Shown here piece by piece: positions 4,970 through 33,932 of a stretch of DNA of 34,562 bases (the stretch's first letter is position 1; the number at the start of each line of letters is the position of its first letter). The DNA is from Candidatus Woesearchaeota archaeon (lineage in GTDB: Archaea > Nanobdellota > Nanobdellia > SCGC-AAA011-G17 > JACPIM01): NCBI GenBank assembly GCA_965603615.1, contig CBFDDQ010000002.1, forward strand, positions 1 to 34,562. Direction: 5' to 3'. The translations under genes and the position numbers were made by a program. The notes beneath the pieces are model-generated. The model had not been told where the DNA came from. It searched no databases and saw nothing but the letters and a program-made list of their open reading frames with translations.

Positions 4970-5434
4970 TCACTTTCTCCAAAAATAAACTCTAACATAC
5001 TTCACATTATCACTAAAATATATAAATATAGCACCAGGATAAACAGACTTCTCAATTGTCTTTGAAGGTAATCCAGTACAAGGACCTACTTTATTACATA
5101 CCTCACAATGATATTCAAAACCAGGAACTAAATGTCTATCTAAAAATTCTTCAATAATTGAAACACAATCAGAATTTGCATATGGAGCTTTTAAACAATC
5201 AAACCCATTGGAACCAGCAATAGGAGCTATTGAAACAGAATTAACACACTCTCTAATTTTCTTATTAGTTAAAAATTCCATCAAAATAAAACTTCTAGCA
5301 GACTCTATACCTTCAGGAATACTAGACTCAGCTAACACAGGTGTCCTAGGTAAAATATAAAGTAAAAAACCAAGAACTAAAAGAATTGCTATAACAGCTT
5401 CCATTGTTCTTATAAAACCTTTCTTGCCTACCAT
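4970..5434 (-). CDS. pilin-like protein with class III (prepilin-type) signal
   Basis: N-terminus MVGKKG-FIRTMEAVIAILLVLGFLLYIL: basic residues plus Gly, then a hydrophobic helix with Glu at +6. Last gene of the pilus block, overlapping the upstream ORF. Confidence 0.55.
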   Translation of the reverse strand: MVGKKGFIRTMEAVIAILLVLGFLLYILPRTPVLAESSIPEGIESARSFILMEFLTNKKIRECVNSVSIAPIAGSNGFDCLKAPYANSDCVSIIEEFLDRHLVPGFEYHCEVCNKVGPCTGLPSKTIEKSVYPGAIFIYFSDNVKYVRVYFWRK

Positions 5435-6147
5435 ACTCTCAAATATACAACCACAGGAACAGTATATCCATTTTCATTAACTATTTGATTATCAATCCTT
5501 CTCACAAAAACATTTGCCTGTTCAGAAGGTTTCACACTTTCTATATTATAATCATAAGTACTGCCGTCAATCTCATCAACATAAATTGAAAATTCTTTTT
5601 CTTGAGGAATTCCCCACTCACTTTTCAACTCAGCATAATCCAAACTACTCAAAACTTCATAATTTAAACCTCTAATATTTCCAACAATACCAAGCTCAGC
5701 ATTACAATAATCAGGATCATCAGGTACACATTTCACCATAAAATTTGGAATACCTTCTAATGATTCATAAAAATAAAAATAAAAAGGAAAATAATTTTCA
5801 TTTTTTTTAAAAACAAATTCAATATCACAAATAAGTGTTTTAGATTTAGATTCTCCATTAATATCTTTAACACCAGCTAATGTCCAGTTTCCATTTTCAT
5901 CATCAACACTAATCTCAGAAGGACTTTCTCTTTCAGGTGATGTTCTGCATTTTCTAATAAACAAAGGAACAGTCTTAACAACCCATATAACATCTTCATT
6001 AAACTGCTCTTCTAAATTATCAAGCAAAGCTGTAGGCCTGTAAATAGGTTTAACACCAGGTCTTAATAAAACAAAAAGTGCAAATATATAAATAATAAAT
6101 ATACCCATGCTGATTACCCAGTCTACATGCCCTCCTTTCTTGTTCAT
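5428..6147 (-). CDS. pilin-like protein with class III signal
   Basis: N-terminus MNKKGG-HVDWVISMGIFIIYIFALFVLL. 4-nt overlap with the upstream TadC-like gene. Confidence 0.5.
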   Translation of the reverse strand: MNKKGGHVDWVISMGIFIIYIFALFVLLRPGVKPIYRPTALLDNLEEQFNEDVIWVVKTVPLFIRKCRTSPERESPSEISVDDENGNWTLAGVKDINGESKSKTLICDIEFVFKKNENYFPFYFYFYESLEGIPNFMVKCVPDDPDYCNAELGIVGNIRGLNYEVLSSLDYAELKSEWGIPQEKEFSIYVDEIDGSTYDYNIESVKPSEQANVFVRRIDNQIVNENGYTVPVVVYLRVW

Positions 6148-8545: not shown

Positions 8546-11500
8546 TTAAGAAATATTAAATTTTTTCAAAACTTCCTTTGAATCTTTATAATAAGAGTTT
8601 ATAACATCATAAACTTCTTTAAAACCAAAAATTTTCTTCTGATATAAAGTCATTAACAATTTAGTTCTCATCTTAAATTCATTAAATAATTCCTGTTGGG
8701 ACATACCGCTCTTTGCTACCAACTTTTTTAAAACATAACTGTCAAGCTTAAAATAAAACTTGTCTGTTCTAGGATCCCACATAAAAGGCATATTTGTTTG
8801 CAAACTTCCAGGCTGCTCACCAATTTTAATAATTTCTGTAATTTGTTTTACTCTTCTGATTGGTTTTTTTCTCATCTTAGCCTGAGTCATAACAATAACA
8901 GCATCAAGACTTTCAACCAAAGCAGGAGATAAATTAATAGGAGGAGTTTCTAATCTTCTGACCATAGTCTCAACATCCTCAGCATGCATTGTTCCATATG
9001 AAGGATGTCCACTTGACATACCCTGGAATAAAACATAAGCTTCTTTGCCTCTAATTTCACCGACAATAACATAATCAGGTCTCTGCCTAAAACTTGCTTT
9101 TAACAAATCAAACAAACTTATCTCACCATAACCTTCCTTAGCACCCATACCCAAGCCTTTTCTTGCTACACTTGGCAGCCAGTTTTCATGCATCAATGCT
9201 AATTCTTTTGTGTTATGAACAAAAATATTATTACACAAGAATTTTTCATATTTTGGAATACTTAAATCAAATACCTCAATTTCATTAGAACTAATTTTCT
9301 TAACTTTCTTAACTTTATCCCACAAAATATCTGTATGTGAAACATCATTAAATTCTGAACCAACAGGGGCAATTCTTTGTAAATAAGGTCTTCCAATATT
9401 ATTAAAGCCATTTAAATAACCCCAATCTAATTTTGTATTTGAAATTTCATTTAATTTATGCATTTTAGACACACTTAAAGGAATAACATCAGAGCAGGAA
9501 TGATGTGCTTTTTTATTTAACAAATTTAATTTATCATTTTTTCTTTTTTGCAAAAAGTTTATTTCTTTAAATCTGTTTATATTTTCAAAACTAGACACAG
9601 ACATACTAATGCATTTATCTTTTCTTTTAGAATCATTTATTCTAGATATAATATTTAATCTCAAAAACAAAGATTGTAAATCTTGTAATAATTCATAACT
9701 CTGGGATGTGCAGGAAACTTCATATTTCAAAACTGTTCCGTCTGCACTAAAATACCCTCTAAGAAAATGTTTAATTTGTTCATTAGAAAGGTTAAACATA
9801 AAATTTGGTATCTTCTTTGTACTAGAGTACCCATCAAACTTTAAAACTTTTTTCATAAATTTGTAAAAAACAGTGCTATGAAGTCTTAAAGAAACACCAC
9901 CATCATTCATTTCAGAATAACCACAATTTAAATACCTGGAAATTTTTCTAAATATTTCTCTGCATTCATTATCTGAATTAGATAAAATTACAGAATTCTT
10001 ATTATAATTATCATAACTTCCATCCCCCACCCATAATCCACAAAACTCTAAAAATTCTTTGTCAATTTTAAACAAGCAAGGAATAGAAGAAGTATTTTTA
10101 CTTTTTATCCTCAATTTTTTTAACTCATTATAAGAAAATTTAATATCCAATTTTAAAAATTCTTCAATATTTATTAAATTATATCTCTTCCACCATCTAT
10201 ATCTTTCTTTTGCAACACCTAATTGTTTATAAGAATAATTTTCAAATATTTTACTAACAGGCTCTCCAACTAAGAAATCTTTTTTAAAATGATGTAAATG
10301 TTTAATAAGATCTATTTCTTTAACTTCTTGTCCGCAAATAGGGAGAGCTCTTGGAACAGCTATAAAGGATTTATTTTCTTTTAAGTCAGTTGGTTTTACT
10401 TCTTTTAATAAAGCATCATCCCCTAATGAAAAAAGAGAATGGTCTTTAGTAACTTTTATTTTCCTTCCAGTAGAGGTTACAACCTCATAAATATCTTTTT
10501 TAACAGCATGTTTAATATAATCAGAAGGTTTAACAAAAATTATTTTGCCTTTTTTATTAATAGTCATTACCTTAGCATTTATTCTATTATCAACAAAATC
10601 TTTTATAGTAACATTACTAATTTTTCCATTTTTATTTATTATTATTCTAGAATCCCCTGTAACACTGTCTTCAATACTTACAACTCTTGCAGCAGGAGGT
10701 ATAAAAAAAGCTAAAACATTTAGCAAAGTAGTTTTTCCAGAACCAGTCCCCCCAATAACAATCATATTAGACTCATGCTCAACAAGCATCCAAAGATAAG
10801 CTAACAGCTCAGGACTTGCAGTTTTAAATTCTATAAGTTTTATTGGGCTCCAAGGCTCTTTTGTAAATTTCCTGATAGTAAAAGTAGGACCTTTTGAACT
10901 AATCTCCTGCGTATATGTAGCATTAATTCTAGAGCCATCTGGCAGCGAACCATCTAATATAGGTGAAGCATAAGATATATATTTGCCGCACTTCTGAGCT
11001 AACTTCTCAACAAAACTTGTCAAGCCCTTTTCATCTCTATAAATAACATTGGTTCTCAAATTTCTATACTTTCTGTGAACTATATATATTGGTGAATTCA
11101 GACCATTGCACTCTATATCTTCTATATAATAATCATTCATCAAAGACTCTATCTTATTCAAGCCTACAAAATTTCTCCAGATATAATACATAATCTTGAC
11201 AAAAGTTTCCTTATTCACATTAATATTAAGTTCATTTAGCAGAATTTTAACATTCTTTTCTAAATACTCAATCACAGCCTCTTCTGTTTTCAAAGCTAAA
11301 AAACTCAGACTGATTAATTCCTCCAAGCCAGACTCTACTATTTTAAACAGCCTTATTTCTTTCTCATTTAACTCAGGCTCTAAAATTTCATATAATACTT
11401 CTTTCTTTTTTGCACTCCAGTGAATATGAACATCAACAAAAGGCTTGATTAAAGGATACTTAACATCAATCTCACTTTTGCTTTTAAAATCAGGAATTAC

Positions 11501-11629
11501 AGGAGTTTCTACTTTTTCAACCTTAAAAACCGTGCTAATTTTTAATTTTTTCTCAGTCTTAGCCTTTACAATTATTGTTTTCTTTTTTTCAAGTGTTTTT
11601 TTAGAATCTTTTTTTACCTCTTTTTTCAT
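8546..11629 (-). CDS. archaeal type II/IV secretion-family ATPase (FlaI/PilB/VirB11-like) interrupted by an intein
   Basis: Walker A GGTGSGKTT, Asp box SIED|..intein..|TKEL, Walker B RPDYVIVGEIRG, His box GHPSYGTMHA. 1027 aa in total, 542 aa after removal of the intein. Confidence 0.9.
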   Translation of the reverse strand: MKKEVKKDSKKTLEKKKTIIVKAKTEKKLKISTVFKVEKVETPVIPDFKSKSEIDVKYPLIKPFVDVHIHWSAKKKEVLYEILEPELNEKEIRLFKIVESGLEELISLSFLALKTEEAVIEYLEKNVKILLNELNINVNKETFVKIMYYIWRNFVGLNKIESLMNDYYIEDIECNGLNSPIYIVHRKYRNLRTNVIYRDEKGLTSFVEKLAQKCGKYISYASPILDGSLPDGSRINATYTQEISSKGPTFTIRKFTKEPWSPIKLIEFKTASPELLAYLWMLVEHESNMIVIGGTGSGKTTLLNVLAFFIPPAARVVSIEDSVTGDSRIIINKNGKISNVTIKDFVDNRINAKVMTINKKGKIIFVKPSDYIKHAVKKDIYEVVTSTGRKIKVTKDHSLFSLGDDALLKEVKPTDLKENKSFIAVPRALPICGQEVKEIDLIKHLHHFKKDFLVGEPVSKIFENYSYKQLGVAKERYRWWKRYNLINIEEFLKLDIKFSYNELKKLRIKSKNTSSIPCLFKIDKEFLEFCGLWVGDGSYDNYNKNSVILSNSDNECREIFRKISRYLNCGYSEMNDGGVSLRLHSTVFYKFMKKVLKFDGYSSTKKIPNFMFNLSNEQIKHFLRGYFSADGTVLKYEVSCTSQSYELLQDLQSLFLRLNIISRINDSKRKDKCISMSVSSFENINRFKEINFLQKRKNDKLNLLNKKAHHSCSDVIPLSVSKMHKLNEISNTKLDWGYLNGFNNIGRPYLQRIAPVGSEFNDVSHTDILWDKVKKVKKISSNEIEVFDLSIPKYEKFLCNNIFVHNTKELALMHENWLPSVARKGLGMGAKEGYGEISLFDLLKASFRQRPDYVIVGEIRGKEAYVLFQGMSSGHPSYGTMHAEDVETMVRRLETPPINLSPALVESLDAVIVMTQAKMRKKPIRRVKQITEIIKIGEQPGSLQTNMPFMWDPRTDKFYFKLDSYVLKKLVAKSGMSQQELFNEFKMRTKLLMTLYQKKIFGFKEVYDVINSYYKDSKEVLKKFNIS
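9212..10666 (-). mobile_element. 485-aa intein with LAGLIDADG homing-endonuclease domain
   Basis: Block A SVTGDSRIII (Ser1), block B KVTKDHSLF. Two LAGLIDADG motifs: LEFCGLWVGDGSY and LRGYFSADGTV. Block F/G VFDLSIPKYEKFLCNNIFVHN followed by Thr+1. Removal restores the family consensus IED-TxEL. Confidence 0.85.
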
Positions 11630-12107: not shown

Positions 12108-12902
12108 TTAACTCACATAAATGCCAACAGTTACTTTTTCATTAGCTTTACCATCATTGCTTATAGCAATTAAATAACTTCCAACTAAAGGGCCTTTTAT
12201 TTTATTATTTTCAGTGTATTCAATATTTATTCCTTTATTACTATAATCTAATAATAAATTTACCATATACTCATCTACAACAAAAGTATCAAGCAAATAC
12301 ATCTCTACATCCCCTTCTCTTTGAATTAAATTAGTATCACTGCACTCATTATTTTCATCAATTTCATCTAAAGGGCAGGACTCCATCAGCATAGTTTCTG
12401 TCTTCATCTCCCATCTAACTTTATTAGTAGGATTAGTATCAAAAATTAATTTACCACCTTTTATTATAACAGGATCTAATACTCTCCTGCTTCCAGGACC
12501 TTCAGTAACAACAGTAGATATAGCATCAGATACAGCATGCATCATTGTCTTTGATTCTATAACAGTATTTCTCTCTTTCATCCTGTTAAGCATAGGTAAT
12601 CCAGCTCCTAAAATCACTGTCATAGCTACCAAACTTAAAGATATATACAAAACAGTAGAAACCCATATCTGTCCTTTTTTCCTTTTAGGTTTCTTAGGCT
12701 CAAAAAAGAATTTTAATGCACTAACAATCAAGCCAAGAATTATTCCTATCGGAACAAAAATCAAAACAATCACAGGATAAGTTTTTAAAACACTAAAAAT
12801 CTCAGCAGTAGCACTTGTTTTAGCTAAAAAATAAACTATTGCTCCATAAATCAAACTAACTATACCAAAGCTTACTATTCCACCTATTTTCCATCCTTTC
12901 AT
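12108..12902 (-). CDS. pilin-like protein with an extra N-terminal 2-TM domain ahead of the class III motif
   Basis: 264 aa. Residues ~1-75 form two TM helices, followed by KRKKGQ-IWVSTVLYISLSLVAMTVILG (prepilin-like) and a ~170-aa soluble domain. There is no in-frame ATG/GTG/TTG just upstream of the KKG motif. Confidence 0.55.
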   Translation of the reverse strand: MKGWKIGGIVSFGIVSLIYGAIVYFLAKTSATAEIFSVLKTYPVIVLIFVPIGIILGLIVSALKFFFEPKKPKRKKGQIWVSTVLYISLSLVAMTVILGAGLPMLNRMKERNTVIESKTMMHAVSDAISTVVTEGPGSRRVLDPVIIKGGKLIFDTNPTNKVRWEMKTETMLMESCPLDEIDENNECSDTNLIQREGDVEMYLLDTFVVDEYMVNLLLDYSNKGINIEYTENNKIKGPLVGSYLIAISNDGKANEKVTVGIYVS

Positions 12903-12920
12903 TTTAAAAAAATAAAAAAA

Positions 12921-13391
12921 TTAACATTCATAATCTCTTGGAACATCTCCGCATGTTAAGTCCTTTCCGCCAGATGATATTGTAGCTATAGCTTCAACTC
13001 TTACTACATCAGTTCCATCACATACTATATCATCAAAAGTCACTATACCATAAGCACCAACTACAACAGTTTCATCTGTTCCAGGACTTATTATATTAGG
13101 ATTATCAATTGTTACATCAGCAAGTCCGCCACCAGGACCATACAATCTAAATATTAATTTTGTAATATCAACATTGCCTCTGTTATCAACCATAATCTTT
13201 CCATTATCTCCTTCTTTCAAATCAAAATTAAGCTCAGTAACACAATCAAATTGTCTTGTAGCTTCTGTAGTTTTCTCTTGTTGAGTTTTAATTGTCTTTG
13301 TCATCCATGGCATTATCAACAAAATCATTGCAATAACTATAGCAACTAATAAAACTGTACCAATCAAAGGACTTATACCTTTCTTATTCAT
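12921..13391 (-). CDS. archaeal type IV pilin
   Basis: MNKKG-ISPLIGTVLLVAIVIAMILLI matches the classic archaeal pilin N-terminus (G-ISP[LV]I[AG]T[VI]LL). Confidence 0.8.
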   Translation of the reverse strand: MNKKGISPLIGTVLLVAIVIAMILLIMPWMTKTIKTQQEKTTEATRQFDCVTELNFDLKEGDNGKIMVDNRGNVDITKLIFRLYGPGGGLADVTIDNPNIISPGTDETVVVGAYGIVTFDDIVCDGTDVVRVEAIATISSGGKDLTCGDVPRDYEC

Positions 13392-13402
13392 ATTTTAACC
13401 TC

Positions 13403-13840
13403 CTATATTCTAACTAATTTATTTTTACTTGAACATGGAATTGGTGGAGCTCCTATACCAGCTGGCCTAACTAAAGGTATAATATTAACCTGTGTAGGAG
13501 TGCCAGAAATTATATACCTATTAATATCAATAACAATCTGGTCATAAGAATTGAGCACACTATTATCCTGCCCTGAATCACCATTATCAAATTTTAATAT
13601 AAAACCATTTATTTTATTAGTTCCAGTATTTCTTATTGTAACTCCATCACTACTAACACCTAAAATTTCCATACCAACATTACTCTCACATTCTAATTTA
13701 ATAGCAGCCACTTCACCTTTTTTCTCCATTAATTCAGTAACATACTGCTTTCCCCAGAATAATATCACACTAGCTAGTATAACAACAAAACTAACTAACA
13801 AAACTGTAGCAATTAATGGACTTATTCCTTTCTTATTCAT
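13403..13840 (-). CDS. archaeal type IV pilin (paralogue of 12921..13391)
   Basis: MNKKG-ISPLIATVLLVSFVVILASV. I chose the Met at 13840, not the track start at 13861. This removes the overlap with the upstream gene and matches the MNKKG starts of the neighbours. Confidence 0.8.
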   Translation of the reverse strand: MNKKGISPLIATVLLVSFVVILASVILFWGKQYVTELMEKKGEVAAIKLECESNVGMEILGVSSDGVTIRNTGTNKINGFILKFDNGDSGQDNSVLNSYDQIVIDINRYIISGTPTQVNIIPLVRPAGIGAPPIPCSSKNKLVRI

Positions 13841-13841
13841 T

Positions 13842-14234
13842 TTAGATACAAATATTTTCATCTATTATCAAATCTCTATTTGGACAACCATATTCTTTTC
13901 CCTCTATTTTTATAAAAGGAATAACAGTAAGGGGTGTTTTTAAATTTATCGTTGCAGTTTCCTCATTAAGAGTTAATTCACTACCAATGTATTGGTTATT
14001 AGCCTTAAGTATAATTTTATAAGAACCAGTATTTTTTATCCCTGCAAAAACTTGCCCATTACAAATAGGAGCTATAGAAACTTCAGCACATCTCTGCTCT
14101 GCTTCAGATTTATCAAAACTTTTTTCAAATCTCCCTGACTGTCTTATCATCCAACCTCCAACCATTATACCTATTACAACTGTAAAACCAACTAGCAAAA
14201 CAAAAGCTACCATTTGACCTTGTCCTTTTTTCAT
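13842..14234 (-). CDS. pilin-like protein with class III signal
   Basis: MKKGQGQ-MVAFVLLVGFTVVIGIMVGG. 130 aa, 1-nt gaps to both neighbours. Confidence 0.65.
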   Translation of the reverse strand: MKKGQGQMVAFVLLVGFTVVIGIMVGGWMIRQSGRFEKSFDKSEAEQRCAEVSIAPICNGQVFAGIKNTGSYKIILKANNQYIGSELTLNEETATINLKTPLTVIPFIKIEGKEYGCPNRDLIIDENICI

Positions 14235-14235
14235 C

Positions 14236-14838
14236 TTAAATCACCTTCTCTCCTGTTACAAATTCTTCATTTAAATAAACTTTAGTTTGATTACCTTTTT
14301 CTTCCCTGCTTATTATTATTAACTGTGGAATATTTGGTTGTAAAATTAAAGAATATTCTATATCTCTAATTTTAATAGAATTTATTGTACCATTAACAAC
14401 TGTTGATTCTCTAGGTATAGCTATAGAAACTCCTGTATCTCCAACCTGCATACTAGCATCCATAGTAACAAGAGTAGCTCTAATTTCAGGTCTAAACTCA
14501 ACATCCTCAGTTTGTAAATAATACCCAACCAAAGGTATATCTTTATAATCTAAAACATAAACAAACTCAAATTCAGGATTTTCAACTTTCGCATACTCAG
14601 TAAAAGCATGAGTAAAACTTGTAAATTCACCCATAAGTTCTACCTCAGTTAAATCACTGTCTCCAGCTAACAATGTATTCATAAACTTACCGCTCTCAAC
14701 ATCAAAATTTTTGGAAATCTGCTCAAAATCATCTTCAAATAAAATTCTCTGAACAAAATTAGTTTGAGATATCAGCATAAACAAAGCTACACTTAAAATC
14801 AAAGCACCTATAATATAAACCTGTCCTTTTTTATTCAT
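14236..14838 (-). CDS. pilin-like protein with class III signal
   Basis: MNKKGQ-VYIIGALILSVALFMLIS. 200 aa, first gene of the pilin run. Confidence 0.65.
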   Translation of the reverse strand: MNKKGQVYIIGALILSVALFMLISQTNFVQRILFEDDFEQISKNFDVESGKFMNTLLAGDSDLTEVELMGEFTSFTHAFTEYAKVENPEFEFVYVLDYKDIPLVGYYLQTEDVEFRPEIRATLVTMDASMQVGDTGVSIAIPRESTVVNGTINSIKIRDIEYSLILQPNIPQLIIISREEKGNQTKVYLNEEFVTGEKVI

Positions 14839-14848
14839 AAAATAATTA

Positions 14849-15460
14849 TTATTTCTTTAATTTAAATAATTTCCTAATATCAATATAAACCTCATCTATA
14901 CTTCTCTCACCATCAATATCAATTAATAATCCATTCTTCTTGTAATAATTAATAACAGGCAAAGTCTCTCTCTTAAAAACTTTCAATCTTTCCCTAATTA
15001 CATCTTCTGTCTGGTCACTTCTAGAAACCAACTTCCCATTGCAAACATCACACTTATTTTCTTTCTTAGGTTTCTCAGTAATTATATTATAAATTTTCTT
15101 GCACTTATTACAAATTCTTCTGTTTAACATTCTTGTTATTATAACCTCATCAGAACAAACTAAATTTACAGCCTTGTCAACATCAACATTTATCTGCTTC
15201 ATAGTTCTTGGAAAGCCGTCAAAAACAACATCATCTTTTCCAGCCACTCTTTCATTTACAATCTCAAGTATAATTTCATCAGGGACTAACCCGCCTTTAC
15301 TCATAAATTTTTTAACTTTCAAACCCAACTCACTTTTATTACTAACTTCTTCTCTTAAAATATCACCAACAGAAATAACATCAACTTTAAAATTATTACC
15401 CAGTCTAGAAGCATAACTTCCCTTTCCACTTCCAGGAGGACCTAGTATCGTTAATCTCAT
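14849..15460 (-). CDS. adk: adenylate kinase, long bacterial-type with Cys4 Zn lid
   Basis: P-loop GPPGSGKGS, DGFPRT, lid CNKC...CDVC. The start is set at MRLTILG (15460) because the longer track ORF runs into the tRNA-Thr gene. Confidence 0.9.
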   Translation of the reverse strand: MRLTILGPPGSGKGSYASRLGNNFKVDVISVGDILREEVSNKSELGLKVKKFMSKGGLVPDEIILEIVNERVAGKDDVVFDGFPRTMKQINVDVDKAVNLVCSDEVIITRMLNRRICNKCKKIYNIITEKPKKENKCDVCNGKLVSRSDQTEDVIRERLKVFKRETLPVINYYKKNGLLIDIDGERSIDEVYIDIRKLFKLKK

Positions 15461-15470
15461 TTTCTCAAAA

Positions 15471-15543
15471 GCCTCGGGAGAGATTCGAACTCTCGACCGT
15501 TGCCTTACCATGGCAATACTCTACCAGACTGAGCCACCGAGGC
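15471..15543 (-). tRNA. tRNA-Thr (anticodon GGU)
   Basis: The reverse complement folds by hand. Acceptor GCCTCGG/CCGAGGC, D arm GCTC-AGTCTGGTA-GAGT, anticodon arm TTGCC-ATGGTAA-GGCAA, T arm GAGAG-TTCGAAT-CTCTC. No encoded CCA. Confidence 0.85.
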
Positions 15544-20548: not shown

Positions 20549-21802
20549 ATGACAGAAAAAAGAAATAAAGGACAATTTGCAAAAGGTAATACTCCTTGGA
20601 ATAGAGGTATGCATAGTCCTAAAAAGCCAGAACCTAAAAAAACACCATATCAAATATTTATGCAAAAAAAAGCTCTTAATCAAAACAGAAATAAGCAGGG
20701 AGATTTTATAAAAGAAACTGAATCTACAAAACCTGCTGAGAAGTATCAACCAGCTTCAAGTTCTGAACATGATGAAGAACCTGTATTTAATGAAGAACCT
20801 ATATTTGAGGAAGTACCTGAATTTTATGAAACATCACCTTTTATATTAGAACAATCTGAGGAAGAACCTGTATTTGATGAAGAAAGACATGAAAGACTAA
20901 GAAGAGAATATGATGAATTCCTAAACAGAACAGAAGAAAGAGCTAGAGAACAAAGTAGACCAGAAGAAGTTACAGAAGTTATAGATGAAAGTCCTAGAGA
21001 ACCAGCTTCAAATAATCTTAGAATTGTTAGAAGACCAACTACTCAAAGTAGACAAGAATCTGTTAGAGAACCAAGTAGACCTACTCAAAATAGACCAGAA
21101 CCTGCTAGAGAACCAAGTAGACCAGCACCTACAAATGTAATTCCTAGAAGACCTACTGGAAATGTGGATAGTGGAGATATAGGAGTAGAAAAAGTAAAAG
21201 CATATATGGATGTTATTAGCGGAAAGGATAGACCAAATAATCTTTCAATCCCTAAAATTGCAAGTATAATTAAAAAAAGCGCACTAGATACATATTCCCA
21301 AAACACAGATAGAGAAGGAAAAGCTTCTGAAGATTATACAACTACAGCAGAAAATATTTATCAAAGTATGATTAATTTTATTAATTCTGAAAGTGTATGG
21401 GGTAATATTGATTCAATACCTAGTGAAAAAGGAAAAAAAGAACACAAAAGAAGATCTAGAGAAGTTTTAGGTATAAAACTAGAAGAGTTTAAAGAAGAAT
21501 TTAAAGGTGCTGTAGATTGGGATGATTTATCTAGCACATACATAAGACCTGCTACAAAAAGATTGAGTGATAGGTTAACTGAAAATGAAACAATAGATTT
21601 AGTAGAAAATGAAGAAATGTTACTAAGTAATACTGTTAAAGATTATTTAGCTAATAGAGGAAGAGAAGCAGGTATGGATTACATAAGAGAAGACAAAATA
21701 GTAACACTTACTGATGTAATGGAACATATCAGATCTGTTTTAAATCAAGAAGCACATAGAGAAGGTGTAGAAAAAGCCTTAGGTTATAGAGAAGCAGCAT
21801 AA
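20549..21802 (+). CDS. hypothetical protein: basic N-terminus, 149-aa Lys-free acidic/Pro/Arg repeat region, globular C-terminal half
   Basis: 417-aa ORF with an AGGT 7-8 nt before the ATG. Repeats EEPVF[ND]EE and REPSRP. No family recognised. Confidence 0.6.
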   Translation: MTEKRNKGQFAKGNTPWNRGMHSPKKPEPKKTPYQIFMQKKALNQNRNKQGDFIKETESTKPAEKYQPASSSEHDEEPVFNEEPIFEEVPEFYETSPFILEQSEEEPVFDEERHERLRREYDEFLNRTEERAREQSRPEEVTEVIDESPREPASNNLRIVRRPTTQSRQESVREPSRPTQNRPEPAREPSRPAPTNVIPRRPTGNVDSGDIGVEKVKAYMDVISGKDRPNNLSIPKIASIIKKSALDTYSQNTDREGKASEDYTTTAENIYQSMINFINSESVWGNIDSIPSEKGKKEHKRRSREVLGIKLEEFKEEFKGAVDWDDLSSTYIRPATKRLSDRLTENETIDLVENEEMLLSNTVKDYLANRGREAGMDYIREDKIVTLTDVMEHIRSVLNQEAHREGVEKALGYREAA

Positions 21803-21806
21803 TTTT

Positions 21807-22619
21807 TTATTTTTTTTCTATAAATTTTTTCATACCACTAACAAAAGTCTCAGCTAGTTTTCTATATTTTTCATACTCAGCCCCAGAAATACTTTTAATC
21901 TCCCTGTGAGTAATTTTTTTAGACAACTTATATAATTTCCTCATAACATCTGCATACTTTCTATTTATATGTCTCTCACCAACCAATCTTCTTTCAAGTA
22001 AATCAGCAACATGGTCAGGACTCGGTGGTATCTCGCCTAATTTCATCAAAGCAGCATGAGCAGCATCAATTGCAGCCCAATACAAATCTATAGTAGCAGT
22101 CAGCAGATGCTGTCTGCTTCTGTGCAGTGAAGCAGGAGCCATTGTAAAATAAGTATAAATTGCTTCCTCACTAGGTCTTATTCTCCCCTGGTCTAACAAA
22201 GCCTGTAAAGGGTCAAAAAACCCAGTATCAACAAGAGCCAAACCACTTCTCAAAATATTTATAGCAACAGGATCCCCAGCCCTGACATACTCCCAGAACT
22301 GTGTAAACTTCATTGATTGTATATGCAGTCTTTGAGGGTCAACAGCAGCAATGCACTTTTGTGTTATAATTCTGTAAGTTTCAATTAATTCTTTGGAAAA
22401 CAAAACAGTAACATCATCCAGCACAATTAACACATCCAAATCCCTATACTTGGCTCCAGGTGTTTTAACAGAACTCCCAAATAAAACTATAGCCTTAATA
22501 AAAGTACCAAACTCTTTGTACATCAACTTAGCAAACTTTCTTGCTATATTAATATCATGCTGAAGATACTTGTCAATTAACTTAGCTCTTCTCTCAGACT
22601 TAGTTTCTTTAAATTTCAT
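21807..22619 (-). CDS. fused nucleotidyltransferase (Pol-beta/MNT-type) - HEPN-like protein
   Basis: NTase motif LFGSSVKTPGAKYRDLDVLIVLDD. The C-terminal helical half (AAIDAAHAALMKLGEIPPSPDHVADLL...ERHINRKYADV) resembles HEPN. Confidence 0.7.
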   Translation of the reverse strand: MKFKETKSERRAKLIDKYLQHDINIARKFAKLMYKEFGTFIKAIVLFGSSVKTPGAKYRDLDVLIVLDDVTVLFSKELIETYRIITQKCIAAVDPQRLHIQSMKFTQFWEYVRAGDPVAINILRSGLALVDTGFFDPLQALLDQGRIRPSEEAIYTYFTMAPASLHRSRQHLLTATIDLYWAAIDAAHAALMKLGEIPPSPDHVADLLERRLVGERHINRKYADVMRKLYKLSKKITHREIKSISGAEYEKYRKLAETFVSGMKKFIEKK

Positions 22620-26516: not shown

Positions 26517-26936
26517 TTAAAGAACTTCTTCCAATTTAAATTCAACATGTTTATCATGATGACCTTGCTGTTGTATCTCTCTAACTGTTTGTTCTCTTAG
26601 AGCATCTAAATCTTGATTAGTTAAATCTAAATTTACATATGCATTAGTTCTTGCCCTGTAAGCTCCATTTTCTGTATTTCCAGTTATAAGAATTTTTCTT
26701 GCTTCTGGATTTTCAAACAATAACTCTGAATAAATTAATCTTATTTGTGGATTTTCTGGTAAATTTGCTTCTTTATAAAAACCATTACTTAATAGAAGTT
26801 GTGTAAATTCTTTAACTTTTTCTTTTAATGTCTTATAATCTTGGGCTTCTGTTGCTCCGCCAATCTTTTCATGTACAGGCGAAGCTAGATACCAGCCATC
26901 TTCTTGCTTCCTAACCTTAAAAACTAATTCTTTCAT
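26517..26936 (-). CDS. HicB-like (UPF0150 fold) protein without recognisable DNA-binding tail
   Basis: N-terminus FKVRKQEDGWYLASPVHEKIGGATEAQDYKTLKEKVKEF fits the HicB pattern (eedG.y.a.vP...G..tqG.t.eEa). 139 aa, 30 nt downstream of the HicA-like gene. Confidence 0.45.
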   Translation of the reverse strand: MKELVFKVRKQEDGWYLASPVHEKIGGATEAQDYKTLKEKVKEFTQLLLSNGFYKEANLPENPQIRLIYSELLFENPEARKILITGNTENGAYRARTNAYVNLDLTNQDLDALREQTVREIQQQGHHDKHVEFKLEEVL

Positions 26937-26966
26937 TTTTGAGTGTATACAAGGGGTAAACTTCCT

Positions 26967-27338
26967 TTATAAATGTTCCTCCTCAAATTTTTGTTTATAT
27001 TTCCTGTAAAGTTTACCGCTTCCTTTGAAATAAATCTCTAATTGCTCACAAGGGATTTTAGTAGCCTGTGAAATATCTTTCATTGCTCTGTCAAATACTC
27101 CAGAGGATACTTCATCCTCATGACCTTTTTGTCTTGGTGACCAGCCTACTCTCATTTCTCCTACATTTATTACTCTATGGCTTCCTTCTTGATGAATTAT
27201 ATCATTACCATATGTTCTCGCTATTCTTTTTACCTTTGTTTCAAAATCATTTAATGATATAAATTGAGGTAATATTTTTCCCCAGCTTTTTTCTGCTTGT
27301 TCTGTTAATTCTTCTAAACTTTTTTCTTTTTTATTCAT
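26967..27338 (-). CDS. HicA-like protein with ~45-aa N-terminal extension
   Basis: HQEGSHRVINVGEMRVGWSPRQKGHEDEVSSGVFDRAMKDI resembles the HicA core (GSH...~20 aa...H....g....i.k). 123 aa. Confidence 0.45.
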   Translation of the reverse strand: MNKKEKSLEELTEQAEKSWGKILPQFISLNDFETKVKRIARTYGNDIIHQEGSHRVINVGEMRVGWSPRQKGHEDEVSSGVFDRAMKDISQATKIPCEQLEIYFKGSGKLYRKYKQKFEEEHL

Positions 27339-27400: not shown

Positions 27401-28123
27401 TTAAACCTTAGCAACCTTCCACAACAATTCAAACAACTTCCTCTCAGTATCAACTATTTGTTTATTCTCTATTATAATACCAATAGAATTCTCCTTCTCA
27501 AAAGTTAGTATAGCTAATTTATTTCCATAGATTATTTTTGTAGTAGGTAATTTCTCATCTATGAATTTTATATTTACATATTTTTTAGGATTGTTTCTCT
27601 TATAACCTCTCATTCTCTTGCAGTCTAAAGTTATCACTTTTGAGAACATTCCTTGTTTTCTTTTCTTTTTTATGAAGTGCGGGAAATAGAAAGGGATAGC
27701 ATCCATGAAATCAGGATCTGCTATAAACCAGGATTCTTTATTTTCTTTTAGAATATCTTCTATTATAGTTTTTAATCCTTTAATTCCCTCATATACTTCT
27801 ATAGAAGGCTTCTCTTTTACAGATTGCTTTAAAGCTTCTAAATCTGGCAGTATAGACTTTAATTTAGCTTGTTTTTCTTGTAAATCTCCAAGTAATTTTC
27901 TAGGCTCTGCTGATTCAAAATATTTAACTCCTGACTTAATCACATAGGAAACAAGACCTTTTTCCTGTAAATACTTCAAAACATCATAACAGGTAACTCT
28001 ATTCAAATTAGCCTTCTTAGCTATTAAATTCACTGTGGACTGCCCTAGTTTTAACAGAGTTAGATATATCTTAATTTCCTTGTCTGAGAGTCCTAATTCC
28101 TTCAATATTTCTTTTATTGGCAT
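27401..28123 (-). CDS. TrmB-family transcriptional regulator
   Basis: N-terminal wHTH LGLSDKEIKIYLTLLKLGQSTVNLIAKKANLNRVTCYDVLKYLQEKGLVSYV, followed by a coiled linker and a TrmB-type C-terminal domain. 240 aa. Confidence 0.8.
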   Translation of the reverse strand: MPIKEILKELGLSDKEIKIYLTLLKLGQSTVNLIAKKANLNRVTCYDVLKYLQEKGLVSYVIKSGVKYFESAEPRKLLGDLQEKQAKLKSILPDLEALKQSVKEKPSIEVYEGIKGLKTIIEDILKENKESWFIADPDFMDAIPFYFPHFIKKKRKQGMFSKVITLDCKRMRGYKRNNPKKYVNIKFIDEKLPTTKIIYGNKLAILTFEKENSIGIIIENKQIVDTERKLFELLWKVAKV

Positions 28124-28160
28124 AAGATTAGTTTGTTTTTCTTGTATTTAAAGTTTATTA

Positions 28161-28217
28161 TTGTAGTAGAATTTCTACAACATATCTTTAAGAATACCCT
28201 TGTCTAACTATGTAGTA
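28161..28217. promoter_or_regulatory. candidate operator in the TrmB / cassette divergent control region
   Basis: Inverted repeat TTGTAG(28161-28166)-N8-CTACAA(28175-28180) plus a third half-site TGTAGTA at 28211-28217, inside the 144-nt divergent gap. Confidence 0.35.
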
Positions 28218-28267
28218 ATGAAAAGTCAATACCTCTAGACTTAAAATGAGGTAGGAAAAATATTAAG

Positions 28268-28711
28268 ATGAATAATAATAGATATGCAATAATGGCTGAA
28301 AGAATACCTGGGTTAGAAGAAGCTATAGATAGATCTTGTAGAAATGGTAGAATTAGTTTAGTAGATTTAAGAGTTATGCCTGAAGAACAAGTTGCTGTAT
28401 ATATAATTGATAGGTTAGCTACAAATCAAGACCGTTCAACTAGAATCTATGCTTTTAGAAGAGGAAGAGAAGGAGTAAGAGAAGCTTCTACTGATTGGTT
28501 TACATATCTTAATACTTCCCAACGTTTTTCCCAAGAAGGTGGTGTTAGACCTAGTTTACGGTATTCATATATAGTAAATATAGAAGTTGGGGAAAGGAGA
28601 ATTACAAGATATTTAGGTTTAGAAGGTTTAGAAGTTGAGAGAAGAAGAATTAGAGCTAGAGTTACAGCAATGAATGGTCAGGGTATAGAAACTTTTGAAT
28701 TTGATATTTAA
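28268..28711 (+). CDS. hypothetical protein, lysine-free (24 Arg, 0 Lys in 147 aa)
   Basis: ATG-to-TAA ORF with GAGGT upstream. I read every codon and found no AAA/AAG in frame. No family recognised. Confidence 0.6.
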   Translation: MNNNRYAIMAERIPGLEEAIDRSCRNGRISLVDLRVMPEEQVAVYIIDRLATNQDRSTRIYAFRRGREGVREASTDWFTYLNTSQRFSQEGGVRPSLRYSYIVNIEVGERRITRYLGLEGLEVERRRIRARVTAMNGQGIETFEFDI

Positions 28712-28712
28712 A

Positions 28713-29189
28713 ATGGAAAATATAAGAGAACAAATTGAAAGAGAATTTAGAGAGAGAGAAGAAGATTCTATTGAAACAGAAAGAATATTTAGAAAAAGTG
28801 ATCCAAATTATACACGACCAGATGAACTTGAATTATTTGTTGGATATTTTAATAATTTTTGTGAACTATTACCTGGTGCATCTAGAAGAAATAGGGTTCT
28901 AACAAATGGAAATCTAGATGAACTAGATGAAGTATGTGGAAATGGCTCTATACATGCAATAAGTGAAAGAAGAGCAAGAATGACTCCTAGAGAATTTTAT
29001 CAAGATGTTGATAATGCAATTACTGAGATTGGCCTAGATCTAAATGAACTTGAAAGACTTTATACATTTACTAATGCTGAAAATGGAAAGGAGAGATTTG
29101 AAGGTTTTAGAAATCTTTACCAATATACATCTTCTCTTTATGAAATATTAAGAGAAAGAGGTTATAGTAAGAGAGATTTAACTTCTTAA
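28713..29189 (+). CDS. hypothetical protein, lysine-poor (20 Arg, 3 Lys in 158 aa), paralogue of the next ORF
   Basis: The ATG at 28713 lies 1 nt after the upstream stop (the track used TTG at 28695). The C-terminal tail LYEILRERGYSKRDLTS matches VYERMLERGYTRGDLCG of ORF 29203. Confidence 0.6.
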   Translation: MENIREQIEREFREREEDSIETERIFRKSDPNYTRPDELELFVGYFNNFCELLPGASRRNRVLTNGNLDELDEVCGNGSIHAISERRARMTPREFYQDVDNAITEIGLDLNELERLYTFTNAENGKERFEGFRNLYQYTSSLYEILRERGYSKRDLTS

Positions 29190-29202
29190 TGAGAGAAATA
29201 AA

Positions 29203-29574
29203 ATGGAAAACGAATTTAATAATTTTCACTGTTGGTTTCCAGGAGGAGCTTATAGAGCTAATTGGCAATTTCCTGAAGGAAAAGATCCAAGAATAATTGA
29301 AAATTTGGATGCTGTTTTAGAAGAAACAGGTTTTGATATTGATAGGTATCAAACTTTAGATGAGAGATTTAGAGTTCTTGATAATGAAGTAACAACTATA
29401 TTATTTAAAAAAGCTAGAAAAGAAAATAGAGAACCAACACAAGATGAACAAAGGAGATTACAAGAGATAGAGGAAGAATGGAATCCACTTGTTGAACAAA
29501 TACATGATACAATAAGACCTGTTTATGAAAGAATGTTAGAAAGAGGGTATACTCGTGGTGACTTGTGTGGATAA
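29203..29574 (+). CDS. hypothetical protein, lysine-poor (13 Arg, 4 Lys in 123 aa)
   Basis: Starts MEN- like the previous ORF. Shares the DA[IV].E..G[LF]D[LI] motif and the ERGY[ST][KR].DL tail. Confidence 0.6.
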   Translation: MENEFNNFHCWFPGGAYRANWQFPEGKDPRIIENLDAVLEETGFDIDRYQTLDERFRVLDNEVTTILFKKARKENREPTQDEQRRLQEIEEEWNPLVEQIHDTIRPVYERMLERGYTRGDLCG

Positions 29575-29643: not shown

Positions 29644-30186
29644 ATGAAAATAACAATAGAAACTAAGAAAAATAAGAATCTCTCAAAGGCAGAAAAAGAT
29701 TTAATTAATAAGCATAGAATCAAGGAATTTGGGAAAAGTGAAGCTAAAGACTTCAAAAAGAATTATGAGCCAAATACAGAATGGTTTTTTGTTAAGGAAG
29801 ATGGCAGGATTGTTTCTTTACTTGGATTAAGGCCAATAAAAGTGAAATACCTTGGGAAAACATATAATATTGGAGGAATATGCAGTTTGATTTCTATTAA
29901 AAAGAAATTAGGTTATGGAAGAATTTTGATTAGGAATTTATTGACTTATTTAAGAAAAACAAAGAAATCTGCTTTAGGTTTCACACACCTGACAGAGTTT
30001 TGCAGAAAAGTAGGGCTTGGGACTAAAAAAGATTTCATCAAGAGGTTTGTTTATATTAATCCTAAGACTGGAGAAAAGGTAATTGATGAAGATGGAGATG
30101 GAGTTTATTACAATGGTAAAGATAACTTAATCAAGAAAATGCTTTCAACTAAAAGAACTGCTTACATAGAGGTAATACACTGGTGA
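29644..30186 (+). CDS. GNAT-family N-acetyltransferase
   Basis: 180 aa. Acetyl-CoA motif A-like KKKLGYGRILIRNLLTYL after a beta-strand core. Lys-rich (32 K, 9 R). Confidence 0.6.
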   Translation: MKITIETKKNKNLSKAEKDLINKHRIKEFGKSEAKDFKKNYEPNTEWFFVKEDGRIVSLLGLRPIKVKYLGKTYNIGGICSLISIKKKLGYGRILIRNLLTYLRKTKKSALGFTHLTEFCRKVGLGTKKDFIKRFVYINPKTGEKVIDEDGDGVYYNGKDNLIKKMLSTKRTAYIEVIHW

Positions 30187-30188
30187 GA

Positions 30189-30689
30189 ATGAAAATACAA
30201 ATCAGAAAAACAAAGATGTCTGATGCAAAAGACTTGCATAAAGCAATTAATGATAAAGATATAATAAATCAACTTGGAGGTTATCCTTATCCCTGTCCGC
30301 TAAGCAAGATTAAAAAAGATATTTCTAAGGGTTTGCAAGATTGGAAGAAAAGGAAAGCATATCCTTTTACAATATTGGTAGATGGAAAAATCGCAGGACA
30401 AGTCATTTTAGAAAATCCTGATAAGAACAAGACACATTATGAGATTGGCTACTTTGTAGGCAAGGATTATTGGAAAAAAGGCATAACAACAAGAGCTGTT
30501 AAAGAAGCGGTGAAATTTGGTTTTGATAAACTAAAACTAAAGAGAATTTGGGGAGACAATGATTCTGATAATCCTGCTTCTGGCAAAGTTATGAAGAAAG
30601 CTGGATTTAAGTTAGAAGGGAGATTAAGAAAGCATGCTTTCAAAAATGGGAAACATTATGATGTTTTGATTTGGGGAAAGGTGAGATGA
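30189..30689 (+). CDS. GNAT-family N-acetyltransferase (RimJ/RimL-like)
   Basis: GYFVGKDYWKKGITTRAVKEAVKFGFDKLKLKRIWG...NPASGKVMKKAGFKLEG is typical of the Acetyltransf_3 type. The ATG is 3 nt after the upstream stop (the track used GTG at 30183). Confidence 0.75.
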   Translation: MKIQIRKTKMSDAKDLHKAINDKDIINQLGGYPYPCPLSKIKKDISKGLQDWKKRKAYPFTILVDGKIAGQVILENPDKNKTHYEIGYFVGKDYWKKGITTRAVKEAVKFGFDKLKLKRIWGDNDSDNPASGKVMKKAGFKLEGRLRKHAFKNGKHYDVLIWGKVR

Positions 30690-31435: not shown

Positions 31436-31948
31436 ATGAAAAACAAACTCCAAAACCTATTCTTCATTAATCCTATGTCTAAATTTCATGTAAGAGAATT
31501 AAGCAGAATAACTAAATTAGACACAAAAACAGTTATGAAATACCTTAAAGAATTAGTAAAAGAAGAAATAATCATAAAAAGAAAAATAAAGCATAAATAT
31601 CCTTATTATGAAGCAAACAGATCATCATATATATATAGATATGAAAAAAGCAACCTTATAATCAAAAAAACAATAAAAAGTAAATTAATTGAATATTTAA
31701 ATAAACAACTGCACCCACAAGTAATAGTTTTGTTTGGTAGTATGCAAAAAGGAACTTATCATAAAAAAAGTGATATTGATTTATTTATAAAGACAAAATA
31801 TAAAAAAATTGATTTTAACAAATATGAGAAAAAGATTGGGTATAAAATTAATCCTTTATTTGAACAAAATCTAAAAAAATTAAGCAAGGGATTATTGCAA
31901 AATATTTATAATGGATATATACTTAGTGGAAATTTAAAGGTAATCTAA
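31436..31948 (+). CDS. nucleotidyltransferase (MNT-type) with N-terminal wHTH
   Basis: LFGSMQKGTYHKKSDIDLFI (the GS-x-G-x-SDIDL motif). N-terminal FHVRELSRITKLDTKTVMKYLKELVKEEII. Confidence 0.75.
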   Translation: MKNKLQNLFFINPMSKFHVRELSRITKLDTKTVMKYLKELVKEEIIIKRKIKHKYPYYEANRSSYIYRYEKSNLIIKKTIKSKLIEYLNKQLHPQVIVLFGSMQKGTYHKKSDIDLFIKTKYKKIDFNKYEKKIGYKINPLFEQNLKKLSKGLLQNIYNGYILSGNLKVI

Positions 31949-32397
31949 TGGCAAAAAGAAAAAGTTATGATGAATGTATAAAAGAGAATAATTTAATTCA
32001 AACTATTCCTGATAAAAATAAAGCTGAAGAATTATTAAAATTAGCCAAACACAGAATAGAATTTTGGGAAGAAATTAAAGAAAAATCAGATAAATATACT
32101 TCTTTATTCATAGAAGGACATTATGAGATAATAAAGGAGCTTTTTACAGTAATAGTGTCTCTAGATGGATGGAAAGCGCTTAATCATGAATGTTTATTTG
32201 CTTATATTATTCAAAATTATAAAGATAAAATTGAAATAGACTTTGAATTTTTATTAGAATTGAAAGATACAAGAAACTCTATAGATTATAGAAGAATTAT
32301 GTTAGGAAAAGACAAGTGGGATAATGTTAAGCTTAAAGTTGATGTATCTATAAAAGCTTTAATAAACTATATAAAAGAAAGAATTGAAGAAGAATGA
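31948..32397 (+). CDS. HEPN-domain protein, partner of the upstream MNT
   Basis: 149-aa all-helical ORF with a TAATG overlap to the MNT gene. TRNSIDYRR lies in the position of the HEPN R-x4-[HY] motif. Confidence 0.6.
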   Translation: MAKRKSYDECIKENNLIQTIPDKNKAEELLKLAKHRIEFWEEIKEKSDKYTSLFIEGHYEIIKELFTVIVSLDGWKALNHECLFAYIIQNYKDKIEIDFEFLLELKDTRNSIDYRRIMLGKDKWDNVKLKVDVSIKALINYIKERIEEE

Positions 32398-33242: not shown

Positions 33243-33932
33243 ATGGAAGTCCCAAAACATATAGGTCTTATTTTAGATGGAAATAGAAGATTTGCTAAAA
33301 AATTAATGCTTAAACCTTGGAAAGGTCATGAATGGGGATATGAAAAAATAAAGGCACTTATGGACTGGACAAAAGAATTAGGAGTAAAAGAACTAACTCT
33401 TTATGTATTCTCAATTAAAAATTTTAACAGGCCTAAAGAAGAATTCAAATATATAATGGATTTATTCTACAAAGCTTTCACAGAAGTTAAAGAAGACCCA
33501 AAAATAAAAGATATTAAAATAAATTTTATAGGAAGAATCCACATGTTCCCAGAAAAAGTTCAAAAAGCTATGACAGACTTAATGGAAACTACCAAAAATA
33601 ATAAAGAATACACAGTTAACTTTGCAATGGCTTATGGCGGAAGAGAAGAAATCATAGATGCAGTCAAAAAAATATCAGAACAAGTAAAACAAGGAAAATT
33701 AAACATAGACCAAATAAACAAAGAAACTTTCGGAAGCAACATGTACATGAATGATGATGTAGAACTAATAATAAGAACCTCAGGAGAAAAAAGAACATCT
33801 GACTTCCTACCCTGGCAGGGACACTACGCAGAATGGATCTTTCTTGATAAATATTGGCCTGAATTTGAAAAAGAAGATTTTGTAAACTGTATAGAAGAAT
33901 ATAATTCAAGACAAAGAAGATTTGGAAAATAA
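33243..33932 (+). CDS. uppS: cis-prenyltransferase (undecaprenyl-diphosphate synthase family)
   Basis: HIGLILDGNRRFAKK, LTLYVFSIKNFNRPKEE, IRTSGEKRTSDFLPWQ. Confidence 0.9.
   Translation: MEVPKHIGLILDGNRRFAKKLMLKPWKGHEWGYEKIKALMDWTKELGVKELTLYVFSIKNFNRPKEEFKYIMDLFYKAFTEVKEDPKIKDIKINFIGRIHMFPEKVQKAMTDLMETTKNNKEYTVNFAMAYGGREEIIDAVKKISEQVKQGKLNIDQINKETFGSNMYMNDDVELIIRTSGEKRTSDFLPWQGHYAEWIFLDKYWPEFEKEDFVNCIEEYNSRQRRFGK

Follow-up and report, generated by a model that had tools for sequence, protein, structure and literature searches.

Avoidance of lysine is a recognised signature of proteins that survive near lysine-directed tagging, as in ubiquitin components, the A chains of AB toxins and the phages of pupylating bacteria. 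In components of the ubiquitin-proteasome system, and in the proteomes and phages of pupylating Actinobacteria, it takes the form of lysine deserts (PMC10169902, PMC10665810), defined as lysine-free regions of at least 150 amino acids (aa), or of at least 50% of a protein that is itself at least 150 aa long (PMC10665810). Arginine carries the positive charge in these long stretches, which are read as protection from lysine-directed tagging. Among AB toxins, the A chain of ricin, cholera A1, Shiga A1 and CdtB also favour arginine over lysine (PMC4030972). At the level of the message, bacterial ribosome-dependent mRNA interferases such as YafQ and HigB (PMC4652777, PMC4931118) would select against in-frame AAA, YafQ cutting A-site AAA lysine codons on the ribosome (PMC4652777). 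The text of the lysine-desert survey never mentions archaea, and the literature on lysine avoidance examined here contained no archaeal example. The present analysis concerns a 34,562-nucleotide (nt) stretch from a Candidatus Woesearchaeota archaeon (assembly GCA_965603615.1, contig CBFDDQ010000002.1, positions 1 to 34,562 of the forward strand), referred to in full as the window, in which a cassette of three small genes (28268-29574, plus strand) encodes proteins almost devoid of lysine.

The cassette consists of three open reading frames (ORFs), all on the plus strand: ORF1 (28268-28711, 147 aa), ORF2 (28713-29189, 158 aa) and ORF3 (29203-29574, 123 aa), with gaps of 1 nt between the first two and 13 nt between the last two. 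Their products contain 24 arginines and no lysine, 20 and 3, and 13 and 4, respectively, against 7:40 and 9:32 (R:K) in the genes on either side; the positions, lengths, gaps and counts are exactly those of the original prediction, a first reading of this DNA that had singled out the cassette for its lack of lysine. The fraction of lysine among lysine and arginine, K/(K+R), ranges from 0.46 to 0.88 in the 34 other window ORFs of at least 90 aa (mean 0.72, standard deviation 0.10), placing ORF1, ORF2 and ORF3 at z = -6.9, -5.6 and -4.6, so that within the window the three are clear outliers (4.6-6.9 standard deviations below the rest). Against the pooled window ratio of 0.73 the binomial probabilities are 2e-14, 3e-9 and 3e-5, and for the 0/24 of ORF1 the probability is 6e-8 even with a baseline of 0.5. 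In 11 related archaeal loci, all 74 ORFs of 100 aa or more have a K/(K+R) of at least 0.31. The sum of lysine and arginine is nearly unchanged (14.9% of cassette residues versus 15.3% in other genes), and the anomaly is a near-pure swap of lysine for arginine, which stands at 13.3%, as does glutamate (7.7% elsewhere). The longest lysine-free run covers 147 of 147 residues in ORF1, 97 of 158 (61%) in ORF2 and 50 of 123 (41%) in ORF3; in composition ORF1 and ORF2 are thus lysine deserts and ORF3 is not, although ORF1, lysine-free throughout, is 3 residues short of the 150-aa length filter. The likeness extends to the AB toxins, in which the bias is also restricted to certain subunits and reaches a similar size, with R:K of 22:2 in StxA1 and 24:2 in CdtB against 24:0 and 20:3 in ORF1 and ORF2.

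The codons show that this bias runs against the composition of the genome. Arginine is encoded in the cassette by 47 AGA, 5 AGG and 5 CGN codons (52 of 57, or 91%, AGA/AGG), which is the synonymous choice seen in the rest of the window. In-frame AAA and AAG make up 1.2% and 0.5% of cassette codons (1.7% summed) versus 8.5% and 2.6% (11.1%) in other genes, while out-of-frame AAA and AAG stand at background level or above in both other frames. Since the depletion is confined to the reading frame, avoidance of A-runs or of a frame-independent motif is excluded. Glycine, alanine and proline are not raised in the cassette, asparagine, tyrosine and phenylalanine are at host level or above, methionine and isoleucine are host-like, and the G+C content of third codon positions (GC3) is 0.07-0.13, compared with about 0.21 in most neighbours. 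The unraised Gly/Ala/Pro, the very low GC3 and the host-like arginine codons together indicate that the bias was not inherited from a GC-rich donor; on this point, as on the AGA/AGG usage, the first reading was borne out. Moreover, AT pressure at silent sites is strong, and the retention of AGA over AAA is therefore harder to explain without selection. A-to-G hypermutation as a source of AGA was ruled out, GAA, AAT and CAA being enriched and not converted. Lysine accounts for 11% of residues in this AT-rich genome and the bias opposes mutation pressure, which makes selection the most economical explanation for such a signature in such a genome.

The three cassette ORFs look like real genes, given the length of the ORF1 frame (an open frame of 147 codons is expected by chance at 30% GC with a probability of about 5e-6), the recurrence of the ORF1 sequence unchanged on a 578-nt contig from a second sample, the homologues of ORF2 and ORF3, and the lack of a long ORF on the opposite strand. 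The start of ORF2 at ATG 28713 agrees with the N-termini of its homologues. The 578-nt contig (L001, ERZ25073475, coverage 1.8) matches window positions 28191-28713 at 100% identity, running from a point upstream of ORF1 as far as the start codon of ORF2; the 55 nt that remain at its end diverge and occur nowhere in the window, reflecting a chimeric assembly or else a variant whose ORF1 does not precede ORF2. The spacings of 1 nt and 13 nt suggest coupled translation of the three ORFs as an operon. By direct reading of the sequence, the divergent intergenic region at 28124-28267, between ORF1 and the TrmB-like gene, presumably holds the promoters of both. It contains an A/T-rich TATA-like TTAAAAT at 28241-28247, some 21-27 nt 5' of the ORF1 ATG, and an inverted repeat TTGTAG-N8-CTACAA with perfect 6-bp arms at 28161-28180, which could be a candidate operator or a chance occurrence in AT-rich DNA. 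A bacterial-type promoter scan of the region gave chance-level scores only, and a terminator was not found.

ORF1 encodes a basic protein (isoelectric point, pI, 9.3) that lacks histidine as well as lysine and is, on these searches, a true, lineage-specific orphan. No homologue was found in a word-indexed search of 5.8 billion sequences or when 1.84 billion representatives were searched exhaustively with HMMER, nor was there a tblastn match in phage or plasmid records or a Pfam, NCBIfam or PHROG match; the only PADLOC match was at chance level (CARF, E = 0.02). The original claim that the cassette proteins belong to no known family accordingly stands for ORF1 and falls for ORF2 and ORF3, which have 82 homologous clusters. 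ORF1 is not itself a member of that family (hhalign against the family profile, probability 0.5%), and tblastn against six-frame translations of six homologue loci (L001-L006) found no relative. Two candidates were considered and rejected: a 127-aa ORF preceding the family gene in L006 showed no relation to ORF1 on direct comparison, and a tightly coupled upstream gene fragment of the lysine-poor homologue P0050 (L017, L018) was by inspection unrelated. The single-sequence AlphaFold2 (AF2) model of ORF1 is unusable (predicted local distance difference test, pLDDT, 38); this unreliable, low-confidence model suggests a beta-rich protein.

ORF2 and ORF3 are confirmed by sequence comparison as paralogues (BLASTP E = 1e-4; subfamily profile-profile probability 99.2%, E = 3.5e-19), as had been proposed, although the two motifs originally given for them were slightly out of register. 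The motifs that they share are NNFxxxxPGxxxR, D-x-x-[LI]-x-E-x-G-[FL]-D-[IL] and Y-E-x-[LM]-x-E-R-G-Y-[ST]-x-x-D-L. Their homologues were collected by an exhaustive HMMER search with the three proteins concatenated as query, also against the 1.84 billion representatives, which returned the 82 clusters (best E = 5e-17, for ORF3; P0022, P0030 and P0037 among the homologues of ORF2); word-indexed searches, whose queries were ORF1, ORF2 and a 77-sequence profile of the family, gave self matches or three known members only. Across the family the motifs read NNFxxxxPGGxYR at the N-terminus, with the arginine invariant, D-x-x-[LI]-x-E-x-G-[FL]-D in the centre and P-[VI]-Y-x-x-[ML]-x-x-x-G-Y-[ST]-x-x-[DE]-L at the C-terminus, and both cassette members carry all of them. 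Family length is about 110-170 aa, with a short form of about 120 aa, which is ORF3-like, and a long form of about 130-170 aa, which is ORF2-like and has an additional N-terminal helix. The AF2 model of ORF3 (46-sequence alignment; pLDDT 95.5, predicted TM-score 0.84) has an N-terminal loop (NNFHCWFPGGAYR), a helix at 29-41, a long hairpin of helices 46-70 and 80-113 and a short helix at the C-terminus, and predicts with confidence an all-helical family fold. Foldseek comparison of this model with PDB and BFVD gave generic coiled-coil hairpins only (best E = 0.5), and PDB sequence searches with single proteins and profiles reached E = 0.014 at best. All matches of the three proteins to Pfam, NCBIfam, PHROGs and PADLOC were below threshold (DUF7020, E = 0.05; CARF; Phage_TAC_11, E = 0.19), and the 77 family members share no recurrent Pfam match. 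ORF2 and ORF3 both have an acidic pI (4.8 and 4.7) and a net charge of -10, and none of the cassette proteins has a signal peptide or hydrophobic segment (grand average of hydropathy -0.6 to -1.0). On these searches the family appears to be previously undescribed and unnamed, and so far confined to DPANN-type genomes, its genome matches being metagenome-assembled genomes (MAGs) of Woesearchaeota, Nanoarchaeia and Pacearchaeota.

Across the homologue clusters (n=82), K/(K+R) has a median of 0.50 and extremes of 0.06 and 0.89, and since values reach 0.89, a near-absence of lysine is not intrinsic to the family. Homologues with normal lysine content, which the first reading had named as evidence that would count against it, therefore exist, yet this is half of the picture, as in 11 of 12 independent loci the family gene lies below the ORFs of its own contig (mean difference -0.18, Wilcoxon p = 0.0015). 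The differences for the two window copies are -0.60 and -0.49, followed by -0.37 in L016 and -0.35 in L003. Family GC3 is not significantly different from that of neighbouring genes (mean -0.05, p = 0.08). When K/(K+R) is regressed on a proxy of AT content (FYMIN minus GAP residues), ORF2 falls furthest below expectation of all family members (z = -2.7). Lysine and arginine replace one another in nearly every basic column of the family alignment, with only R18 invariant, and where homologues mostly have lysine the window proteins have arginine or a non-basic residue. This free interchange shows that the shift is general and not position-specific. The lysine shift is thus a graded property of the family, and it is extreme in this window.

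Homologue loci were located by pattern scans derived from narrower alignment subsets, broad alignments being without a conserved stretch. The family gene is present in one copy at each of the 21 loci examined, mostly amid housekeeping genes, such as those for S8e and TFB (L006), a MinD-like ATPase and MetRS (L005), S17e and Alba (L009), TYW3 (L003), or a DHH phosphoesterase, an acylphosphatase and UPP synthase (L016). The cassette differs in this respect: elsewhere family members (K/(K+R) 0.22-0.68 in the loci examined) stand without an ORF1-like partner, none having been found in the loci searched, and adjacent long and short forms occur only here. A UPP synthase gene stands 0.8 kb from the ORF2-like gene of L016 and another, at 33243-33932 of the window, 3.7 kb from the cassette, a loose synteny that suggests a native locus. 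A conserved functional neighbour of the family gene was not found. Two sets of neighbours are given here as leads only. A 270-aa NTP_transf_2/Pol-beta-type protein (window 21807-22619, minus strand; L003 4827-5627; L013 260-1114; 55% and 37% identity) is encoded immediately adjacent to the family gene in L003 and at a distance of one gene in L013, and its window copy lies 5.6 kb away from the cassette, an arrangement that may reflect a functional link or conserved synteny; the nucleotidyltransferase adjoining P0061 has no detectable relation to it. Two unrelated loci have genes of the metallo-beta-lactamase fold (Lactamase_B_2/3/4, RNase Z-like or Apyc1-like) beside the family gene (L002 1357-2172, with P0061; L019 210-1124, with P0011).

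Among the immediate neighbours of the cassette, the divergent gene on the minus strand (27401-28123) encodes a TrmB-like helix-turn-helix (HTH) regulator (Pfam TrmB, E = 2.4e-15), and the two plus-strand genes that follow the cassette had been called GNAT acetyltransferases, an assignment that is secure for the second (30189-30689; Acetyltransf_3, E = 1.7e-23; RimJ/RimL-like) and sub-threshold for the first (29644-30186; 23.0 bits against a cut-off of 25). All three are lysine-rich, and the GNAT genes have an ordinary GC3 (0.27-0.28). The linkage of the cassette to TrmB and GNAT genes stressed in the original prediction proved incidental: neither a standalone TrmB-type regulator nor a GNAT lies beside the family gene in the homologue loci whose neighbours were annotated or scanned, and homologues of the window's TrmB-like and GNAT genes were not found in L001-L016. 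The sole HTH gene seen, about 1.7 kb upstream in L016, encodes an 825-aa HTH/beta-propeller fusion with a faint TrmB match. A GNAT-toxin/antitoxin module of the TacAT or AtaRT type was rejected, as ORF3, which precedes the first GNAT gene, has no ribbon-helix-helix or DUF1778 match, its model is a helical hairpin and no GNAT adjoins the family gene in the loci with annotated or scanned neighbours.

We tentatively propose, at a probability of roughly 40%, that the cassette is a native operon whose products assemble into a small complex and have been selected to avoid lysine, the likeliest reason being escape from lysine-directed covalent modification or tagging. The cassette would be native to an AT-rich archaeal genome and not a mobile or defence insert, and would encode a soluble hetero-oligomer of one basic orphan (ORF1) and two acidic helical paralogues (ORF2 and ORF3). 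The family is shifted towards arginine relative to its genomic background, a shift that here has become almost complete and has taken in the unrelated ORF1. Selection against lysine residues is suggested by the in-frame-only depletion, the opposition to an AT pressure that favours AGA to AAA changes and the non-position-specific nature of the shift. Candidate pressures that the proteins would avoid are N-epsilon-acetylation, conjugation of ubiquitin-like or SAMP modifiers and chemical damage to lysine, and, by analogy with lysine deserts and with the A chains of AB toxins, escape from lysine-directed modification is perhaps the mechanism. The comparison with lysine deserts has its differences, however: they are known from eukaryotes and from Actinobacteria, whose genomes are GC-rich and whose low lysine content is partly compositional, whereas the cassette belongs to an AT-rich, lysine-rich archaeal genome, its proteins are of unknown family and no tagging system was identified here.

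Several results weigh against this proposal. No lysine-directed modification system was identified or linked to the cassette, and genes for an E1-like enzyme, SAMP or Pup were not recognised among the scanned ORFs of the 34.6 kb window. The adjacent GNATs, one of which resembles the RimJ/RimL N-terminal acetyltransferases, are not conserved neighbours. The probable complex of the three proteins is read from gene spacing. Within the family, 16 of the 82 homologue clusters have a K/(K+R) of 0.30 or less, and in the regression on AT content ORF3 is not exceptional (z = -1.45); the lysine-free ORF1 has no homologues. The extreme depletion has been seen at one locus in one genome, the proteome statistics come from 34.6 kb of that genome, and the three proteins are known as gene predictions. 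A bolder extension, which we consider improbable though slightly less so than the translation-level alternative below, holds that the three proteins mark a lysine-directed tagging or modification pressure not described in DPANN, acting on them either as effectors that enter the host archaeon and evade SAMP/ubiquitin-like targeting to the proteasome or as core parts of a lysine-modifying machine that avoids self-modification, with the mildly lysine-poor NNF-PGG-YR family as a DPANN-wide component.

The nearest competitor to selection against lysine is structural preference combined with drift, which is possible though doubtful. According to this explanation arginine is favoured in the family, for example through Glu-Arg salt bridges on the hairpin, the window copies are the tail of a distribution, ORF1 is a young, fast-evolving gene whose freedom from lysine serves no purpose of its own, and no avoidance is at work. 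The shift towards arginine in 11 of 12 loci fits it, as do the several homologues with K/(K+R) of 0.2-0.3, the position of ORF3 within the family range and the richness of the proteins in glutamate and arginine in combination with a model that is nearly all helix. However, the interchange of lysine and arginine at nearly all basic columns argues against an arginine-specific structural requirement, the protein with the most extreme bias (0/24) is ORF1, which is unrelated to the family and has a low-confidence beta-rich model, and the AT pressure evident from GC3 should move AGA to AAA in a drifting gene. Selection at the level of translation, in which lysine codons are avoided to keep the mRNA translatable or intact when lysine decoding is compromised, is unlikely. 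Its cause might be limitation of lysine or tRNA-Lys in an auxotrophic symbiont, a tRNA-Lys anticodon nuclease, or an mRNA interferase of the YafQ or HigB kind acting on A-site AAA, and the comparison extends to site-free transcripts that escape sequence-specific toxins. A strictly in-frame depletion fits codon-level as well as residue-level selection, and the trait is common to three cistrons of one predicted transcript, the unrelated ORF1 included. Against this, seven lysine codons remain in the cassette, and the moderate family-wide shift in other genomes is simpler to explain at the protein level. The interferases are also bacterial, and no RelE/YafQ/HigB-like or PrrC-like gene was recognised when the window ORFs were compared with Pfam and NCBIfam, 18 smaller ORFs being outside that scan; nor do the cassette proteins resemble toxin-antitoxin components by profile search. 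We know of no archaeal precedent for selection at the level of lysine codons.

Slightly less probable again is that the cassette proteins are effectors delivered from the DPANN cell into its host archaeon, where the lack of lysine would evade SAMP tagging and proteasomal degradation. Effectors are often lineage-specific, and ORF1 is lineage-specific while the family is found in DPANN-type MAGs only; the magnitude of the bias also resembles that of StxA1 and CdtB (PMC4030972). Unlike the A chains, however, the cassette proteins have no toxin or enzyme domain by profile or fold search and no delivery system or secretion-system linkage was identified; they lack a signal peptide or hydrophobic segment, and elsewhere the family gene is a single-copy gene in a housekeeping context. 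Least likely is the idea, in part put forward in the original prediction, that the bias is a relic of transfer from a lysine-poor (GC-rich or halophilic) donor or that the cassette is an arginine-rich nucleic-acid-binding or defence module on a mobile element. In its favour, cassette GC3 departs from that of most neighbours (0.07-0.13 versus about 0.21), the most lysine-poor homologues (P0053, P0041 and P0068) look GC-rich or acidic, and the basic ORF1 would suit a nucleic-acid binder. But GC3 lies below that of the host and not above it, Gly/Ala/Pro content is normal and Phe/Tyr/Met/Ile/Asn content host-like, and the synteny with UPP synthase suggests a native locus. Binding of nucleic acids is contradicted for ORF2 and ORF3 by their strong acidity. 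Similarly, insertion-type flanking repeats were not found around the cassette, no PADLOC or PHROG match was significant (best E = 0.02 and 0.27, respectively), two IMG/VR scans returned no relative of the family, ORF1 has no phage or plasmid match, and the family's neighbours elsewhere are housekeeping genes. This set of readings is largely refuted.

Selection against lysine may leave a further trace in the window. Outside the cassette the longest lysine-free run, of 149 residues (the next-longest being 88), lies in an unknown 417-aa protein encoded 6.5 kb upstream (20549-21802, plus strand; GC3 0.09) that has no Pfam or NCBIfam match. The run spans residues 66-214 (nt 20744-21190; 36% of the length), is one residue below the 150-aa criterion for lysine deserts and contains 20 arginines and 31 glutamates; it follows a lysine-rich N-terminus and precedes a normal C-terminal part, is rich in Arg, Glu and Pro, and partly consists of a low-complexity Pro/Glu/Arg repeat. 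This lysine desert may share its cause with the cassette, or may just be a low-complexity linker. Across the window, K/(K+R) tends to decrease with falling GC3 (Spearman 0.46, p = 0.004, cassette included; 0.31, p = 0.07, cassette left out). GC skew tracks the direction of transcription very closely, being near +0.3 for the coding strand and between -0.3 and -0.45 in regions of minus-strand genes.

Other genes of the window include archaeal markers, namely ABCE1/RLI, an archaeal CCA-adding enzyme, TrmB and a type II/IV secretion (PilB-like) ATPase; taken with a protein family seen in DPANN-type genomes only, they point to a DPANN archaeon. The ATPase is a 1027-aa PilB/FlaI-type protein (T2SSE; 8546-11629, minus strand) split by an intein with a LAGLIDADG homing-endonuclease domain. 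Small minus-strand genes adjoining it (12108-14838 and 4970-6147) encode products that start MNKKG(I/Q) followed by a hydrophobic segment and look like archaeal type IV pilin-like proteins with a class III signal peptide. At 31436-32397 (plus strand) a gene for an HTH and minimal nucleotidyltransferase protein (Polbeta/NTP_transf_2, 170 aa) shares a single base with a 149-aa ORF without a family match, an arrangement that looks like the layout of an MNT/HEPN-type toxin-antitoxin pair with a putative HEPN partner. A HicA/HicB reading of 26517-27338 was dropped for want of Pfam or NCBIfam support. The sole tRNA, tRNA-Thr(GGT) at 15470-15543 (minus strand), overlaps the 5' end of the called ORF at 14849-15511 (minus strand), so that this gene probably begins further downstream than called.

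Were selection against lysine to hold true, the cassette would provide a handle on an uncharacterised, apparently DPANN-restricted family and on a post-translational or translational pressure acting in these little-understood symbionts. The shift from lysine to arginine relative to genomic neighbours could also serve as a computable screen for further members. If the bias instead reflects structural preference only, the lasting result would be a new small helical protein family with a confident model and without a known fold relative.

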